DNA of 24,000 nucleotides from Ichthyenterobacterium magnum (GCF_003610635.1 NZ_RAQJ01000001.1:348474-372473), one strand, 5' to 3'. Positions 15,758 through 23,054 are shown, counted from the first letter of the stretch. Translations and numbers: made by a program. Notes: generated by a model from the sequence alone, not told the origin.

Positions 15758-17050
15758 TTGGAAACCGAAAATCAATTCACTTTGTCCAACTATCAATCTG
15801 GTCTTGAATACGCAAAGCAACAAGACGCTTTAGACGAATTATCAAGCTATAGAAACCAATTTCATATTCCAAAAGACAAATATGGAAATGAACTTATTTA
15901 CCTCTGCGGAAACTCGCTTGGATTACAACCAAAAACCACTAAAGCATATATTAATCAAGAACTTGAAGATTGGGCTAATTTAGGTGTAGAAGGTCACACA
16001 GATGCAAAAAACCCATGGTTACCATATCATGAGTTTTTAGCAGAAAGCACAGCAAAATTAGTTGGCGCAAAACCAATTGAAGTCGTTACAATGAACTCGC
16101 TTACTGCAAATTTACATTTTATGATGGCTTCGTTTTACAAGCCTACTAAATCACGTTACAAAATTGTTATTGAAAGTGACGCATTTCCTTCAGATAAATA
16201 TGCTGTAGAATCACAACTACGTCATCATGGTTATGATGATAAAGAAGGTTTAATACTTTGGACACCTCGAAAAGGCGAAGAGTTATTACGTTATGAAGAT
16301 TTAGAAACAATTTTAGAACAACAAGGTGAGCAAATTGCATTAGTAATGATTGGTGGTGTAAACTACTATACAGGACAGTTTTTCGATTTTAAACGTATTA
16401 CAAAACTAGGTCACAAACATGGCTGCATGGTTGGTTTTGATTGTGCCCATGGCGCAGGAAATGTTGATTTAGATTTACATAACTCTGGAGCAGATTTTGC
16501 CGTTTGGTGTACTTACAAATATTTAAACTCTGGCCCAGGAAGTTTATCTGGATGTTTTGTACATGAACGCCATGCTTACGATAAAACCTTAAACCGATTT
16601 ACAGGTTGGTGGAGTCATAATAAAGAAACGCGTTTTAATATGCGTCACGAATTTGATGTATTGCCAGGTGCAGAAGGATGGCAGTTAAGTAATCCGCCTA
16701 TTTTATCTATGGCAGCAATTAAAGCGTCGTTAGATATGTTTAACAAAGTAGGTATTAAAAAACTTAATAAAAAGTCTAAAAAACTTACAGGTTATTTTGA
16801 GTTCTTATTAAAACAATTAGGTGAAGATACTATTAAAATTATTACTCCAGAAAACCCAGATGAACGTGGTTGTCAATTATCTATTCAAGTATTAAACGCA
16901 GACAAATCATTACATAATAAATTAACAGAAGCAGGTGTAATTAGTGATTGGCGAGAGCCAGATGTGATTCGCTGTGCTCCAGTACCTTTATATAATTCGT
17001 TTGAAGATGTATACCAGATGGTTGAAAAAATGAAAAAAATATTAAATTAA
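15755..17050 (+). CDS. kynU: Kynureninase (PLP-dependent)
   Basis: The N-terminal YRNQFHIP...IYLCGNSLGLQPK and the PLP-lysine region WCTYKYLNSGPG are characteristic of kynureninase. No ATG start is available: TTG 15755 is the ORF-track start and in-frame TTG 15782 is the alternative. Confidence 0.9.
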   Translation: MLETENQFTLSNYQSGLEYAKQQDALDELSSYRNQFHIPKDKYGNELIYLCGNSLGLQPKTTKAYINQELEDWANLGVEGHTDAKNPWLPYHEFLAESTAKLVGAKPIEVVTMNSLTANLHFMMASFYKPTKSRYKIVIESDAFPSDKYAVESQLRHHGYDDKEGLILWTPRKGEELLRYEDLETILEQQGEQIALVMIGGVNYYTGQFFDFKRITKLGHKHGCMVGFDCAHGAGNVDLDLHNSGADFAVWCTYKYLNSGPGSLSGCFVHERHAYDKTLNRFTGWWSHNKETRFNMRHEFDVLPGAEGWQLSNPPILSMAAIKASLDMFNKVGIKKLNKKSKKLTGYFEFLLKQLGEDTIKIITPENPDERGCQLSIQVLNADKSLHNKLTEAGVISDWREPDVIRCAPVPLYNSFEDVYQMVEKMKKILN

Positions 17051-17051
17051 C

Positions 17052-17132
17052 ATGTCATTCCGCACTTGATGCGGAATCCACTATAAATTGAAGTTTAATT
17101 AATTAAGATTCCTGCTTTCGCAGGAATGACAT
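17052..17132 (+). repeat. Paired-hairpin intergenic element, copy A (10-bp terminal inverted repeat ATGTCATTCC / GGAATGACAT)
   Basis: Left hairpin attccgca-cttga-tgcggaat (17057-17077). Right hairpin attcctgc-tttc-gcaggaat (17108-17127). The core 17053-17131 is 67/79 identical by hand alignment to 22426-22504. The element fills the kynU-kmo spacer exactly, from 1 nt after the stop to the nt before the ATG. Confidence 0.9.
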
Positions 17133-18533
17133 ATGAAAAACAAACAACAAAACATACTCATTATTGGTGCAGGACTCTGCGGAAGCCTTCTTGCATTACG
17201 ATTAGGACAACGTGGATATAATGTTACCGTTTTTGAAATGCGTCCAGATTTACGAAAAACAGATATTTCTGCAGGACGTTCTATTAACTTAGCGTTTTCG
17301 GATCGTGGCAATAAAGCCATGAAATTAGTTGGCATAGAAGATAAAGTAAAAGCGTTGTGCATCCCAATGAATGGTCGTATGCTTCATGATAAAGAAGGTA
17401 ATACATTCCTTTCAAATTATAGCGGACGCGAGCATGAATACATTAATTCTATTTCTCGTGGAGAGCTTAATGGTCTATTACTAACTGAAGCCGAAAAACA
17501 TGATAATGTTACCATTCATTTTAATAAAAAATGTAAATCGGTTGATTTTGAAAAAACAACAGCTTTATTTCAAGACTACAATACCAAGAAAGAATTTGTA
17601 GAAGATGCAGATGCAATTTTTGCTACAGATGGTGCTGGTTCTGCTATGCGAAAAAGTTACTATTTAGGTAAAAAATTCTTGTTTAGTTTTTCTCAAGATT
17701 ACTTAACACATGGTTATAAAGAATTAAGCATTCTTCCAACAAAAACTGGAGATTATAAAACCTATAAAAACGCCTTGCATATTTGGCCAAGAGGCGCATT
17801 TATGCTTATAGCTTTACCCAATTTAGATGGCAGTTTTACAGTAACACTCTTTTTAGGTTATGATGAAGGCGAATACAATTTCAATAATTTAACAACACCA
17901 GAAATCGTTACAGAGTTCTTCCAAAAAGAATTCCCTGATGCTTTAGAACTCATGCCAAACTTAGTTGAAGACTTTTTTGATAACCCAACTGCACCTTTAG
18001 GAACCGTAAAATGTTCACCATGGCATTATAAAGGTAATACGCTACTTATGGGAGATTCGGCTCATGCTATTGTTCCGTTTTACGGACAAGGTATGAATGC
18101 CTCTTTTGAAGATGTTGTAGAATTTGATGCCGTTTTAGATAAACATGAAGGAAACTGGGAAACCGTTTTTACCGAATACGAAAAAAACAGAAAGAAAGAT
18201 ACTGATGCTATTGCCGATTTAGCGATAGATAATTTTCATGAAATGAAAGACCACGTTGGTCAAGCCATATTTCAAGAAAAGCGAAAAATTGAAATGGCTT
18301 TAGAAAAAGAATTTCCAAAAGACTATTCATCAAAATACAGCCTAGTAACCTTTAATGAACATATTGGTTATCGAGAAGCAATGCTTAAAGGTCGTGCTCA
18401 AGATAAAGCCATATTGAATATGTTATCAGATGGTGTTATTTCTCCAACTGGTAATATGAAAGACATTTTAAACAAAGTAAAACAAGAAACCGAAGCCATT
18501 TTAGAAGACGATAGAGTTGCTGGATTAAAATGA
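17133..18533 (+). CDS. kmo: Kynurenine 3-monooxygenase (FAD-dependent)
   Basis: FAD dinucleotide fold ILIIGAGLCGSLLALRL. KMO-typical segments GRSINLAFSDRG, IPMNGRMLH, LLMGDSAHAIVPFYGQGMN and a C-terminal helical domain are all present. Confidence 0.9.
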   Translation: MKNKQQNILIIGAGLCGSLLALRLGQRGYNVTVFEMRPDLRKTDISAGRSINLAFSDRGNKAMKLVGIEDKVKALCIPMNGRMLHDKEGNTFLSNYSGREHEYINSISRGELNGLLLTEAEKHDNVTIHFNKKCKSVDFEKTTALFQDYNTKKEFVEDADAIFATDGAGSAMRKSYYLGKKFLFSFSQDYLTHGYKELSILPTKTGDYKTYKNALHIWPRGAFMLIALPNLDGSFTVTLFLGYDEGEYNFNNLTTPEIVTEFFQKEFPDALELMPNLVEDFFDNPTAPLGTVKCSPWHYKGNTLLMGDSAHAIVPFYGQGMNASFEDVVEFDAVLDKHEGNWETVFTEYEKNRKKDTDAIADLAIDNFHEMKDHVGQAIFQEKRKIEMALEKEFPKDYSSKYSLVTFNEHIGYREAMLKGRAQDKAILNMLSDGVISPTGNMKDILNKVKQETEAILEDDRVAGLK

Positions 18534-18596
18534 GTTAGCAGTTAGCAGTTAGCAGTTAGCAGTTAGCAGTTAGCAGTTAGCAGTTAGCAGTTAGCA
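18534..18596. repeat. Perfect heptamer tandem repeat (GTTAGCA)x9
   Basis: Counted directly as 9 uninterrupted units. The first unit starts on the nucleotide after the kmo TGA (18531-18533). Confidence 0.97.
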
Positions 18597-18827
18597 AAAT
18601 AAAAAGATATATTGGGAAATGATATAACCTAGTAAAGTTCATGTCCCAGATCAATTCTGAGAATTGAACATTGAAATGTAGAAATAATGAACGAAGGAAT
18701 GGAGATGCAAAACGAAGCTTTAAGCACGAAATTCCGAAAGAGAATGTTCCGAAGGAATTTCCTCATTTCAATTTGACTTTTTGGTTCGTTTTGTGTCAAG
18801 ACAAAATGAACAGATAAAAAAAATATT

Positions 18828-19262
18828 ATGAGTAATAACAACAATGAAATTCCTGCTTCAGCAGGAACAAAGGTAACACCAAGAGGAGCATATCCACATG
18901 TAAAGCAAGTAGGCGATTTTATTTTCGTTTCAGGAACGAGCTCTAGAAGACCCGATAATACAATTGCTGGTGTAGATATTATTGACGAAATGGGAACTAA
19001 ACGTCTAAATGCTGAAGTACAAACTCGTGAAGTTTTAAAGAACATAGAAAGCAACCTAGTTAAAGTTGGAGCCTCTTTAAAAGACGTAGTAGATGTGACT
19101 TCCTTTTTGGTTAATATGAATGATTTTGCAGGTTATAACAAAGCCTATGCTGAATTCTTTGACAAAGAAACCGGACCAACACGCACAACCGTTGCTGTAC
19201 ACCAATTACCACATCCAGATTTAGTGGTTGAGATTAAAGTAATGGCTTATAAGAAAGTATAG
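18828..19262 (+). CDS. RidA/YjgF-family protein; by context probably 2-aminomuconate deaminase
   Basis: 144 aa with RidA-family sequence ([18 protein letters not shown]...DVVDVTSFL...GPTRTTVAV). Known 2-aminomuconate deaminases (AmnD, NbaF) belong to this family. The gene lies between kmo and the ALDH. Confidence 0.8.
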
Positions 19263-19485: not shown

Positions 19486-20925
19486 ATGAACATTCAAAAC
19501 TATATTAACGGCAACTTTCATAATCCAATTAATGACAATTGGATAGACAACTTTAATCCATCTAATGGTGAAGTTTATGGACAAATACCTAACTCAACCA
19601 AAGAAGATGTTGAAAATGCTTATATCGCTGCAAAATCTGCTTTCCCTGTTTGGTCACAAACTACATTTGAAGAGCGAAGCAGAATCATACTCAAAATTTC
19701 TGAGTTACTCGAAGCCAACTTGCAACGCTTTGCCGAAGCCGAATCTAAAGACAATGGCAAACCTTTAAATTTAGCAAAAGCAGTAGATATCCCAAGAGCA
19801 GCAAGCAACTTTAGATTTTTCGGAAATGCCATTACGCAATTTGCAAGCGAAAGCCATGAGAGTGTTGGTCAACAAGCTATAAATTACACCTTACGCCAGC
19901 CTATTGGTGTTGTTGGCTGTATTTCTCCTTGGAATCTTCCACTCTATTTATTTAGTTGGAAAATTGCTCCAGCAATTGCCGCAGGAAACTGTGTAGTTGC
20001 AAAACCAAGCGAAGTTACGCCAATGACTGCATATTTATTAGGCGAGATTTGCAACGAAGCTGGGTTACCAAAAGGTGTACTCAATATTGTTCATGGGCTT
20101 GGTGGTTCAACTGGTCAAGCCATTGTAGAACATCCAGATATTAAAGCCATTAGTTTTACTGGAGGCACAGCAACTGGAGCACATATTGCGAGAACAGCTG
20201 CGCCAATGTTTAAAAAATTATCACTAGAACTCGGTGGAAAAAATCCAAATATTATTTTCGCAGATTGTGATTATGAAGATATGTTAGATACTACTGTACG
20301 TTCGTCGTTTGCAAATCAAGGTCAGATTTGCTTATGCGGAAGTCGTATTTTTGTTGAAGCGTCTATCTATGATAAATTTAAAGCTGATTTTGTTAATCGC
20401 GTAAAGGCATTAAAAATTGGTCATCCATCTAAAGCAGACACAAATATTGGTGCTTTAGTATCCAAACCACATTTAGAAAAAGTAAAAGAATACATTCAAA
20501 TTGCTAAAGACGAAAATGGAACTGTTTTATGTGGCGGAAACGATGTTTTAGTTAAAGGCTACGAAAATGGCTACTATCTAGAGCCAACAGTTATTGAAGT
20601 TCCAAATGATGAATGTCGCGTAAATCAAGAAGAAATTTTCGGGCCAGTAGTTACCATCATGCCATTTAATACTGAAGATAGTGTCTTACAAATGGCAAAC
20701 AAAGTAAAGTATGGTTTATCAGCAACACTTTGGACTAATGATTTAAAATGCACCATGCGTATGAGTAATCAATTACAAGCTGGAATTGTTTGGGTGAACA
20801 CTTGGATGATGCGTGATTTAAGAACACCTTTTGGTGGTGTAAAAAATTCTGGCGTTGGCCGTGAAGGTGGTTTTGAAGCGTTACGCTTTTTTACTGAAGC
20901 TAAAAATGTGTGTATTAAATATTAA
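19486..20925 (+). CDS. NAD-dependent aldehyde dehydrogenase, ALDH8-like; probable 2-aminomuconate-6-semialdehyde dehydrogenase
   Basis: Catalytic Glu (LELGGKNP) and Cys (FANQGQICLCGSRIFV) motifs are present. The ICLCxSR context resembles ALDH8A1/AmnC/NbaE-type enzymes, and the gene sits in the pathway cluster. Confidence 0.85.
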   Translation: MNIQNYINGNFHNPINDNWIDNFNPSNGEVYGQIPNSTKEDVENAYIAAKSAFPVWSQTTFEERSRIILKISELLEANLQRFAEAESKDNGKPLNLAKAVDIPRAASNFRFFGNAITQFASESHESVGQQAINYTLRQPIGVVGCISPWNLPLYLFSWKIAPAIAAGNCVVAKPSEVTPMTAYLLGEICNEAGLPKGVLNIVHGLGGSTGQAIVEHPDIKAISFTGGTATGAHIARTAAPMFKKLSLELGGKNPNIIFADCDYEDMLDTTVRSSFANQGQICLCGSRIFVEASIYDKFKADFVNRVKALKIGHPSKADTNIGALVSKPHLEKVKEYIQIAKDENGTVLCGGNDVLVKGYENGYYLEPTVIEVPNDECRVNQEEIFGPVVTIMPFNTEDSVLQMANKVKYGLSATLWTNDLKCTMRMSNQLQAGIVWVNTWMMRDLRTPFGGVKNSGVGREGGFEALRFFTEAKNVCIKY

Positions 20926-21004
20926 GTGGTTAGTGGTTAGTGGTTAGTGGTTAGTGGTTAGTGGTTAGTGGTTAGTGGTTAGTGGTTAGTGGTTAGTGGT
21001 TAGT
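20926..21004. repeat. Perfect heptamer tandem repeat (GTGGTTA)x11 plus GT
   Basis: Counted directly as 11 uninterrupted units. The first unit starts on the nucleotide after the ALDH TAA (20923-20925). Confidence 0.97.
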
Positions 21005-21061
21005 AAAACAATAGAAAAAAATAATTTAAAAAGATTCTGAATCAAGTTTAGGATAACAAAT

Positions 21062-21586
21062 ATGAATTTTAAAATAACTATCTTAACATTATTAATTACT
21101 TTTCATTGTTTTGCTCAAGACAATTGGCAGACATACACAAAGGACAATTACACTATTGATTATCCTTCAGATTGGACTTACAGCAATCAAAAACCTCAAC
21201 CTACGATTCAGTTTGTTTTAAAAGCTAGTCCTAACTCGGCAAAAAATGATCAATTCCAAGAAAATATAAACCTCAATCTAGAATTTCTTAAACAAGATAA
21301 AATTAATCTAGATTCTTATATAAACACAACAATTAAACAGATTTTATCTCAAGTTAATGATGCCCAAATTATAGAAAACAAATTAATAAAATCAAATGAC
21401 TTAGATGCGAAATTGTTTGTTTGGTCTGGTAGTTTTGGAAATGGTATCGTTTTAAAATTTAGACAATTAGTTTTTATAAAAAATAAAACCGCTTACGTAC
21501 TCACATTAACTTGTACAGAGACTGATTATGAAAGCTATATTAATATAGGAAACAAAATTTTTAACAGTTTTAAATTTAAAAATTAA
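21062..21586 (+). CDS. Secreted protein of unknown function (signal peptide)
   Basis: 174 aa with signal peptide MNFKITILTLLITFHCFA|QD. The mature part is a mixed alpha/beta-looking domain with no recognisable catalytic motif. Its stop TAA (21584-21586) abuts the next ATG. Confidence 0.7.
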   Translation: MNFKITILTLLITFHCFAQDNWQTYTKDNYTIDYPSDWTYSNQKPQPTIQFVLKASPNSAKNDQFQENINLNLEFLKQDKINLDSYINTTIKQILSQVNDAQIIENKLIKSNDLDAKLFVWSGSFGNGIVLKFRQLVFIKNKTAYVLTLTCTETDYESYINIGNKIFNSFKFKN

Positions 21587-22369
21587 ATGAACTTAGAGCT
21601 CAATAACAAATACGCTTTAGTCTGTGGAAGCACTGCTGGAATTGGCAAGGCAACAGCTTTAGCCTTAGCAACAGAAGGCGTTCAAGTAACACTTATAGCT
21701 AGAAATGAAGAAAAGCTAAAAGCTACGCTTGCCGAATTACCTCAACAACGTAATCACGATTATATTGTGGCAGATTTTTCAAATCCAATAGAATTGAAAG
21801 CTAAAGTTTCTGAATATATTTCTGAAAATCATGGATTTCACATTTTAGTAAATAATACAGGTGGCCCAAAAGGTGGGCCAGTTTTTTCGGCAGATGTCGA
21901 TGAGTTTGAAAGTGCTTTTACACAACATCTAAAATGCAACCATGTACTAGCACAAGCAGTTGTTCCGTTTATGAAAGACGAAAATTATGGACGTATTGTA
22001 AACGTTATTTCTACATCTGTAAAACAACCACTAGATGGCTTAGGTGTGAGTAACACCATTCGTGGCGCAGTTGCAAATTGGAGCAAAACCTTAGCAAATG
22101 AATTAGGTCAATTTGGAATTACAGTCAATAATGTATTGCCGGGAGCAACAGGAACAGAGCGTTTAAGTGAAATTATCAAAAATAAATCTACAAAAACTGG
22201 TGTTACAATTGATGATGCATCAAATGCTATGAAAAATGCTGTTCCTGCAAAACGTTTTGCAAAACCAGAAGAACTAGCAGATGCTATTACGTTTCTTGCA
22301 AGTGAACGTGCAGCCTATATTAACGGAATTAATCTTCCTGTTGATGGTGGACGCACAAAATCTCTTTAA
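21587..22369 (+). CDS. Atypical short-chain dehydrogenase/reductase-like protein (no YxxxK)
   Basis: Rossmann motif VCGSTAGIGKA and NNTGG are present. Where the catalytic YxxxK should lie, the sequence is GVSNTIRGAV, and there is no YxxxK anywhere in the 260 aa. Confidence 0.85.
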   Translation: MNLELNNKYALVCGSTAGIGKATALALATEGVQVTLIARNEEKLKATLAELPQQRNHDYIVADFSNPIELKAKVSEYISENHGFHILVNNTGGPKGGPVFSADVDEFESAFTQHLKCNHVLAQAVVPFMKDENYGRIVNVISTSVKQPLDGLGVSNTIRGAVANWSKTLANELGQFGITVNNVLPGATGTERLSEIIKNKSTKTGVTIDDASNAMKNAVPAKRFAKPEELADAITFLASERAAYINGINLPVDGGRTKSL

Positions 22370-22405
22370 TATCAAACTTGATTTGATATCTTATAAATTG
22401 AAAAG
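22369..22405 (+). repeat. Half-copy of the intergenic element (CTTGA-loop hairpin plus TATAAATTGAA box)
   Basis: Hairpin atatcaaa-cttga-tttgatat (22369-22389) has the same loop as copies A and B but a different, fully compensated stem. It is followed by tataaattgaa (22392-22402), identical to 17082-17092. Confidence 0.75.
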
Positions 22406-22425
22406 TAATCATTAACTTTAGAACT

Positions 22426-22504
22426 TGTCATTCCGTACTTGATACGGAATCCATTATATATTGAAATAGAATTAAAAAAGATTCCTGTCTTTGCAGGAAT
22501 GACA
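22426..22504 (+). repeat. Paired-hairpin intergenic element, copy B
   Basis: 79 nt, collinear with 17053-17131 (67/79 identical by hand count). Left hairpin attccgta-cttga-tacggaat. Right hairpin attcctg(t)-cttt-(g)caggaat. Terminal inverted repeat TGTCATTCC / GGAATGACA. Confidence 0.9.
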
Positions 22505-22520
22505 AAATAAAAATAGAATC

Positions 22521-23054
22521 ATGAGTAAATTAGTTTCTCCCTTAAATTTTAAAGCTTGGATTGAAGAAAACAGACATCTTTTAAAACCACCTGTTGGAAA
22601 TAAAGTAGTTTGGAAAGATGGTGATTTTATTGTTATGGTTGTTGGTGGACCAAATAGCAGAAAAGATTATCACTATAATGAAACTCCAGAATTTTTCTAT
22701 CAAGTTGAAGGTGATATTGTTTTAAAAGTCATTGATAAAGGCACACCAAAAGACATACACATTAAAGAAGGTGAAATATTTTTATTACCTCCAAAAGTGC
22801 CGCATTCTCCACAACGAGGAGCAAACACTGTTGGATTAGTTATTGAATATCCAAGAGAAAAAGGTGTTCAAGATGCTTTACTTTGGTTCTGTGAAAATTG
22901 TACAACTAAATTGTATGAAGAAGATTTTACTTTAGACAATATTGAAACTGATATGCCTGCGATTTTCGACAAATATTATGGAGATAAAGACAAACGCAGC
23001 TGCCCAAATTGTGGTGAAGTAATGCAACCACCTAAAAAAGTACAAATAGATTAA
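22521..23054 (+). CDS. nbaC: 3-hydroxyanthranilate 3,4-dioxygenase (cupin)
   Basis: 177 aa with N-terminal LKPPVGNK, cupin core DYHYNETPEFFYQVEGD...PPKVPHSPQR, and a C-terminal rubredoxin-like CENC...CPNC site. Confidence 0.92.
   Translation: MSKLVSPLNFKAWIEENRHLLKPPVGNKVVWKDGDFIVMVVGGPNSRKDYHYNETPEFFYQVEGDIVLKVIDKGTPKDIHIKEGEIFLLPPKVPHSPQRGANTVGLVIEYPREKGVQDALLWFCENCTTKLYEEDFTLDNIETDMPAIFDKYYGDKDKRSCPNCGEVMQPPKKVQID

Follow-up and report, generated by a model that had tools for sequence, protein, structure and literature searches.

The closest described relatives of the repeats analysed here come from Neisseria. The Neisseria Transformation Sequence (NTS, CGTCATTCCCGCGMAVGCGGGAATCYRG) is a 28-nt oriented hairpin that contains the Neisseria dRS3 repeat, and it has been generalised as 'Ssn-related motifs' (SRM) (Chenal et al., Nat Commun 2025; PMC11893778). 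SsnA is a GIY-YIG nuclease of 94 aa with a single domain. It binds the motif solely as ssDNA and cuts a few bases upstream; it is inactive on dsDNA, on RNA and on the reverse strand. Binding depends critically on the C that directly follows the palindrome, and cleavage on the three bases in front of it. A stem swap with the structure kept abolishes the activity. The ssn genes, which encode single-domain GIY-YIG proteins of CDD family cd10448, are usually flanked by SRMs in the manner of insertion sequences. The SRM search string, HGTCWYN(0-2)YYVSBRHN(0-5)WNVSBRGN(0-2)RNCYNB, was made by hand from 29 genomes (PMC11893778). The literature query dRS3/GTCATTCCCGC led us to this paper; queries with the element sequence or with peptide strings gave primer noise or no match.

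The window, which is the whole stretch of 24,000 nucleotides analysed here, belongs to Ichthyenterobacterium magnum, a member of the Flavobacteriaceae near Winogradskyella. Its 3-hydroxyanthranilate dioxygenase (3-HAO) is 92-94% identical to Winogradskyella-like proteins. The elements sit in a co-directional kynurenine-pathway operon with the gene order kynureninase, KMO, RidA-like, aldehyde dehydrogenase, PsbP-like ORF, SDR and 3-HAO. Two doublets of 78 nt, copy A (17054-17130) and copy B (22427-22503), are found on the plus strand. Copy A occupies the whole junction between the kynureninase stop (17050) and the KMO ATG (17133), and copy B is located upstream of the 3-HAO ATG at 22521. Each is composed of GTC, the left hairpin and a C, a spacer with a box, and then the right hairpin and GAC. 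In copy A, the left hairpin is ATTCCGCA/CTTGA/TGCGGAAT (17057-17077), and the right hairpin is ATTCCTGC/TTTC/GCAGGAAT (17108-17127). In copy B, the left hairpin is ATTCCGTA/CTTGA/TACGGAAT (22430-22450), and the right hairpin is located at 22481-22500.

Each doublet is thus made of two inverted 8-bp hairpins, GTC-ATTCC..GGAAT-C ... G-ATTCC..GGAAT-GAC. The consensus of A and B is GTC-[ATTCCGyA CTTGA TrCGGAAT]-CCA and a TATAwATTGAA box in the left part, and an A/T-rich spacer followed by G-[ATTCCTGy .... GCAGGAAT]-GAC in the right part. The ends of the doublet are inverted repeats (TGTCATTCC/GGAATGACA), an arrangement that the first-pass annotation had overlooked, and every end is a palindrome too. 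The alignment of A and B covers 92 nt with 83% identity. According to the same annotation, a single double change, C-G to U-A, separates the left stems of A and B, and the right hairpin of B shows a C-G to U-G wobble change. Both differences are present, in DNA letters a T-A in the left stem of B and a T.G at the eighth pair of its right hairpin. The left-hairpin pattern was observed twice in the window against 0.01 expected.

A half copy precedes copy B on the plus strand (22369-22420). It consists of a solo hairpin, a box at 22392-22402 and a conserved spacer to TTAACTTTA, so that it reaches about 22420, an extent that had been overlooked. The hairpin, ATATCAAA/CTTGA/TTTGATAT (22369-22389), is followed by a C, and no GTC is present before it. 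Its first base is also the last of the SDR stop codon (TAA, 22367-22369), as had been reported, and four of the eight stem pairs differ from A, all four with compensation. The CTTGA loop is constant over the three left hairpins with different stems, in agreement with the original description. Two more relics are extra decayed copies that had escaped notice. One is a right-type hairpin on the plus strand (18849-18868, ATTCCTGCTTCAGCAGGAAC), translated as IPASAGT in the N-terminal extension of the RidA-like ORF. The other, read directly from the sequence, lies on the minus strand (21033-21057, GTTATCCTAAACTTGATTCAGAATC); it is a solo hairpin with the CTTGA loop, decayed to six of eight pairs, and directly precedes the ATG at 21062.

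Other repeats are present in the same operon. A heptamer tandem array, (AGTTAGC) repeated about 9 times, is located immediately 3' of the KMO stop codon (18534-18595), and another, (AGTGGTT) repeated about 11 times, immediately 3' of the aldehyde dehydrogenase stop codon (20925-21004). In the locus L410, (GTGATAA) x3 is found at the equivalent KMO/RidA position. A composite insertion, consisting of a repeat of about 200 nt (..AATAATGAnCGAAGGAATG.AGATGCAAA..TTTTTGGTTCGTTTTG..CAAAATGAAC) and a hairpin, is present at 18620-18868 of the window, at 3822-4077 of L410 and at 4546-4872 of L246. L411 has no composite insertion, yet encodes the same 3-HAO protein as L410. In the window, the composite gives the RidA-like ORF a new ATG and an N-terminal extension of 14 protein letters, and the IPASAGT stretch of the extension is the hairpin in translation.

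The hairpins fold far better than shuffles as ssDNA or RNA, with z from -4 to -6. The DNA fold energies of the five hairpins are -8.2, -6.5, -7.8, -4.8 and -4.8 kcal/mol. As DNA, four of the five show z from -4.3 to -5.8, and none of 200 shuffles was as good; for the right hairpin of copy B, z is -2.5 and 6 of 200 shuffles were equally good. For the half-copy hairpin, the DNA fold is significant (z -5.2) and the RNA fold is not (z -1.1).

By sequence, the window hairpins are members of the SRM. In the SRM orientation they read TGTCATTCCGCACTTGATGCGGAATCCA and, on the minus strand, TGTCATTCCTGCGAAAGCAGGAATCT. The right hairpins, read on the minus strand, are TGTCATTCCTGCGAAAGCAGGAATCTTA in copy A (17104-17131), which is the canonical oriented motif (GTC, palindrome, C), and TGTCATTCCTGCAAAGACAGGAATCTTT in copy B (22477-22504). 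GTC is present before the palindrome in all four doublet hairpins, on the plus strand for the left and on the minus strand for the right, and it is missing in the half copy (TTA) and in its ortholog in a related metagenome contig, L273 (CTA). The C after the palindrome is found in all five cases (GGAAT-C in the four doublet hairpins, GATAT-C in the half copy), and this column is more than 90% conserved in our alignment A3. The published SRM string has no exact match in the 24-kb window. When one substitution was allowed, exactly the two left hairpins were matched and no other site in 24 kb; the right hairpin of copy B needs two substitutions, at which level chance matches also arise. The string misses these hairpins only on account of a stem shorter by one pair, or of an A-T pair at an S (G/C) position.

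With a stem pattern that leaves the inner three pairs free, 47 copies were recovered. Watson-Crick pairing is complete in 46 of them, the remaining one has a G.T, and 11 stem types are represented. A gap-free alignment of 31 distinct CTTGA-type hairpins, which includes the window half copy and its ortholog in L273 and has some rows from patterns fixing the outer pairs, shows 98.4% paired stem cells against 80.2% in shuffles. Changes on both sides occur in six of the eight stem pairs, and 46 double-change cells were observed against 11 expected. None of 500 shuffles reached the observed covariation values. When the 3' partner was slid by 1-3 columns, pairing fell to 18-42%. G.T intermediates and decayed copies occur among relatives (L150, L221, L368). 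In both data sets mismatches are not as frequent as compensated changes. The compensation described for the window is therefore real and general.

L273, whose genes are 74-86% identical to those of the window, indicates the relative age of the copies. Its kynureninase and KMO genes overlap (ATGGATAA), so no copy A is present, and its SDR/3-HAO spacer retains the half copy and lacks copy B. From this polymorphism, A and B are evidently insertions, and the half copy is evidently older than B. The half element is thus homologous, as had been claimed, with an orthologous copy in L273. The orthologous half copy is TAG-TGCTGAA-CTTGA-TTCAGCA-TCATATAAATTGAAAAGTAATTGTTAACTTTA, and that of the window is TAA-TATCAAA-CTTGA-TTTGATA-TCTTATAAATTGAAAAGTAATCATTAACTTTA. 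Between them, 9 of 16 stem positions differ, with four pairs fully compensated and one G.T, whereas 3 of 38 surrounding positions differ (Fisher p = 0.0003); the 31 nt 3' of the hairpin contain three differences. Judged by this pair, the stem turns over faster than its flanks. Such fast turnover fits module replacement, templated correction or nuclease co-evolution better than simple purifying selection. The post-hairpin spacer (22392-22420) is about 90% identical between the two sequences, and the flanking coding DNA 74-86%; the spacer may be constrained or recently homogenised.

The elements are widely distributed. With the right-hairpin pattern GATTCCTG-N6-CAGGAATGAC, scanned with one genome per species, at least 120 loci were found in nearly all bacterial phyla. 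Among the matches listed are many Flavobacteriaceae and also Rickettsia (L176, L188 and L198 have the same right hairpin as the window), and many are doublets with a GTCATTCC..GGAATCCAG partner. A metagenome scan with the loop and the box gave more than 90% chance matches in A/T-rich DNA, the real ones being L273, L321, L365, L368 and L369. A viral-contig scan with the end octamers alone, a loose end-to-end pattern, gave mostly chance matches and exposed high-GC relatives, GTCATTCCCGCGAAGGCGGGAATCCA...TGGATTCCCGCCTTCGCGGGAATGAC. Members of the same doublet family (85-90% alike) occupy trp junctions in L368, L369 and L321 (trpE|G, trpG|D, trpC|F and trpF|B). L365 has one ahead of RidA and L201 one between atpA and atpG, and other junctions carry them as well. 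Most of the recovered box-type doublets are in operons for the biosynthesis or the degradation of tryptophan (L321, L368 and L369, trp; the window, L365 and L413, kyn). A special link to tryptophan-metabolism operons was set aside because the copies are few and counter-examples exist in the atp operon and elsewhere; the clustering may be chance or local hopping.

At the junctions that carry elements in the window, other relatives have different palindromic element families, giving NIME-like mosaics. A third family of palindromic doublets, GCCCATCCCTAnCCCTTCCCnAAGGGAAGGGAA ... GGATGGGC, is found at the SDR/3-HAO junction of L241-L250, in the place taken by the half copy and B in the window.

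No GIY-YIG ORF was found in the 24-kb window, and the cognate nuclease is therefore shown in relatives only. In L247 and L248, a decayed GIY-YIG gene is located between RidA and Aldh of the orthologous operon. In L400-L405, many of which are marine Winogradskyella-like contigs, an intact gene of 106 aa is present in the same RidA/Aldh slot, and L406 has a paralogue with the same hairpin flanks in a beta-oxidation operon. These genes encode 106-107 aa and are flanked by ATTCCTGC..GCAGGAAT hairpins. The flanks, ATTCCTGCG.AGGCAGGAATCTC / ATTCCTGCGTAGGCAGGAATCTC and the inverse, are of the right-hairpin type of the window; beside the genes of L247, L400 and L406 this stem is found without the canonical GTC. 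The Winogradskyella-type protein has a Pfam GIY-YIG domain (1.7e-15) and is 53% identical to a GIY-YIG protein of Pirellulales, with a canonical SRM downstream of the Pirellulales gene. Sequence searches of NCBIfam and PDB gave no subfamily name for the Winogradskyella-type protein. A second GIY-YIG type (L247 8717-9034; 105 aa, MKTYYVYILKCSDG..) adjoins GTCTCGACTGCGCTCGACCAGAC, the right arm of another hairpin family, GTCACCTCGAGCGCAGTCGAGAGGT / GTCTCGACTGCGCTCGACCAGAC; L245, L247 and L248 have this family complete at their KYNU-KMO junction. One genome may thus hold separate nuclease/hairpin pairs.

Each left hairpin is followed by a near-identical box, as had been noted: TATAAATTGAA in copy A (17082-17092) and in the half copy (22392-22402), and TATATATTGAA in copy B (22455-22465), all on the plus strand. 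A role of the box as a promoter is not borne out. Compared by eye with the Bacteroidetes consensus (-7 TAnnTTTG and an upstream TTG at proper spacing), TATAAATTGAA has no TAnnTTTG, in line with the first description, and a sigma-70-type promoter scan found sites no more frequently than in shuffles. Short-spacer copies (L150, L221) have no box, and it is kept within one spacer subfamily only. An intrinsic terminator, defined as a G+C-rich hairpin and a U-run, was found on the plus strand of neither element; the right hairpin of copy B is terminator-like on the minus strand only. In Rfam, no family was found at the gathering score. At relaxed thresholds the one informative match was FtrB (RF02748, Francisella sRNA B), which matched copy A on the minus strand (17037-17150) with 26.6 bits against a gathering score of 66, and copy A is not counted as a member. 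The FtrB consensus contains guCauuCcCGCGuAGGCGgGaauCUC, the same hairpin type as the window element, which accounts for the sub-threshold match. FtrB itself may be a transcribed copy of an SRM-type repeat.

We propose, with a probability of about 0.7, that A and B are non-autonomous and MITE-like, each a doublet of inverted SRM/NTS-type hairpins that would serve as ssDNA sites for an Ssn-family GIY-YIG nuclease. The kind of repeat is that described in 2025; the low-GC, doublet-forming form is new, and it is not a new RNA. Following Chenal et al. (2025), the hairpin would fold where the DNA is single-stranded (replication, a transcription bubble, incoming DNA), and the cognate nuclease would bind it. 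The nuclease would read the stem sequence, the shape and the 3' C, and GTC would guide a nick a few bases upstream of the hairpin. In the case of the doublet, two nicks are predicted just outside both ends and on opposite strands, which is the geometry of an SRM-ssn-SRM unit, and the doublet may be a gene-less derivative of such a unit. Stem complementarity would be kept because folded copies alone get recognised and propagated or replaced. As the half copy has the hairpin and the C but no GTC, binding without cutting is predicted for it. Several points weigh against the proposal: the 24-kb window has no GIY-YIG ORF, the published string has no exact match in it, and the hairpins beside the Winogradskyella GIY-YIG genes do not have the canonical GTC. 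SsnA also spares the reverse strand, which leaves a single site for cutting on each strand of a doublet and gives no direct route to excision. To our knowledge, Flavobacteriaceae are not known for natural transformation, and we know of no other process in which a function of Ssn has been demonstrated.

The first-pass annotation had interpreted the compensated stems as a functional RNA or ssDNA structure under selection. The compensation stands, and of the two molecules ssDNA is favoured over RNA, since the hairpins carry determinants of the NTS/Ssn-related motif that SsnA binds and cuts only as ssDNA. Most likely, the structure is maintained as ssDNA. A role in mRNA, in which host selection on RNA folding would keep intercistronic stem-loops for upstream stabilisation, processing or translation tuning, would explain why every copy is located within a co-directional operon, a few bases before the next start codon, and why 11 of 12 doublets share one orientation relative to transcription, with the CTTGA hairpin on the sense strand (p = 0.006). 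The good folding of the elements as RNA (z about -5), the G.T/T.G intermediates and the same hairpin in FtrB are also consistent with it. However, the occupancy of the junctions varies among relatives, which are empty or have other element families, the oriented flank of the right hairpin is on the antisense strand, and the same motif occurs in all phyla beside a DNA nuclease without RNA binding. The sub-threshold Rfam result, a sense strand without a terminator-like U-run and a half-copy hairpin that folds as RNA no better than shuffles also argue against it, and we regard an mRNA role as unlikely.

Selection is also not the sole reading of the compensation, because the stems change faster than their flanks, which fits module replacement or hairpin-templated mutation. 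Complementarity could arise without selection if intrastrand template switching (quasipalindrome correction) or swaps of hairpin modules produced double changes in one step. The contrast in the half copy between stem and surroundings (p = 0.0003) is expected from such events; the L273 stem, TGCTGAA/TTCAGCA, is identical to a stem type in L194 and L176, and the junctions are mosaics of different hairpin families. On the other hand, decayed copies (L368 3257-3329; window 21033-21057) keep uncorrected mismatches, and the unpaired GTC and C, whose conservation equals that of the stem, cannot be explained by correction. Such events would account for stem change and not for the existence of the elements, and they are compatible with the nuclease-site interpretation; as a full explanation they are improbable. 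REP/REPIN elements mobilised by RAYT, an IS200/IS605-type Y1 transposase, have the same architecture, a pair of imperfect palindromes in inverted orientation around a short spacer, and are likewise intergenic and in multiple copies; Chenal et al. themselves draw this analogy (PMC11893778). The conserved head here, however, is GTCAT and not GTAG/CTAC, and no Y1 transposase was seen in the window or in the orthologous loci, whereas relatives have GIY-YIG genes with these hairpin flanks. The head sequence and the enzyme found thus exclude REP/RAYT, to which we assign a very small probability.

If A and B are nuclease sites of this kind, a further proposal is that Ssn-family GIY-YIG ssDNA nucleases act in trans to mobilise the doublets. 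These would then be true mobile elements, with strand-biased insertion at operon junctions and with stems that diverge more quickly than the flanks as nuclease specificity changes. We consider this possible and put it forward tentatively, with the odds against it. If true, the doublets would be a GIY-YIG counterpart of REPIN/RAYT and of IS200/IS605, and the CTTGA hairpin on the sense strand would lie on the lagging-strand template where the operon is co-oriented with replication. The pairs of empty and occupied sites, the junction mosaics and the orientation bias make the idea that Ssn units are mobile elements testable. An unannotated flavobacterial repeat is now placed in the Ssn/SRM system, so far characterised in Neisseria. 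As the published string misses low-GC variants with 8-bp stems, the SRM abundance in Bacteroidota is probably underestimated. Annotation is affected as well: the hairpins lengthen ORFs or give them new ends (RidA, Aldh), and could be miscalled as sRNAs or terminators.

Compared with SRM/NTS, the window element has the same GTC(AT) head, the same ATTCC..GGAAT palindrome and the C after it. It is likewise intergenic and multi-copy, clustered around particular genes and spread over phyla, and in relatives small single-domain GIY-YIG genes are flanked by the hairpins. It differs in the stem, which is 8 bp (not 9) with A-T pairs, in the CTTGA loop of one hairpin, and in the arrangement as an inverted doublet of 78 nt that has no gene and a conserved A/T-rich spacer. 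Its host, a flavobacterium, is low in GC, and no nuclease partner is seen in the window.

Palindromic elements of Rickettsia are hairpin repeats with GTCAT..ATGAC-type ends that are translatable inside genes. The IPASAGT extension (18849-18868) may be compared with them, and the relation is only a lead. Like dRS3 and the NIMEs, the intergenic mosaic elements of Neisseria, the window elements have an ATTCC..GGAAT palindrome that flanks short repeat units, with mosaic turnover at fixed intergenic sites. The dRS3 of Neisseria, which is a phage integration target as well, is strictly ATTCCC-N8-GGGAAT, whereas the window units are ATTCC-N11-GGAAT or ATTCC-N10-GGAAT (ATTCCGCACTTGATGCGGAAT and ATTCCTGCTTTCGCAGGAAT), and they are not dRS3. 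With REP/REPIN, the doublets share the inverted arrangement of imperfect palindromes folding on ssDNA, and, as proposed, an origin as non-autonomous copies of what flanks a single-copy enzyme gene. In REP/REPIN, however, the head is GTAG and the enzyme is an HUH Y1 transposase rather than a GIY-YIG nuclease.
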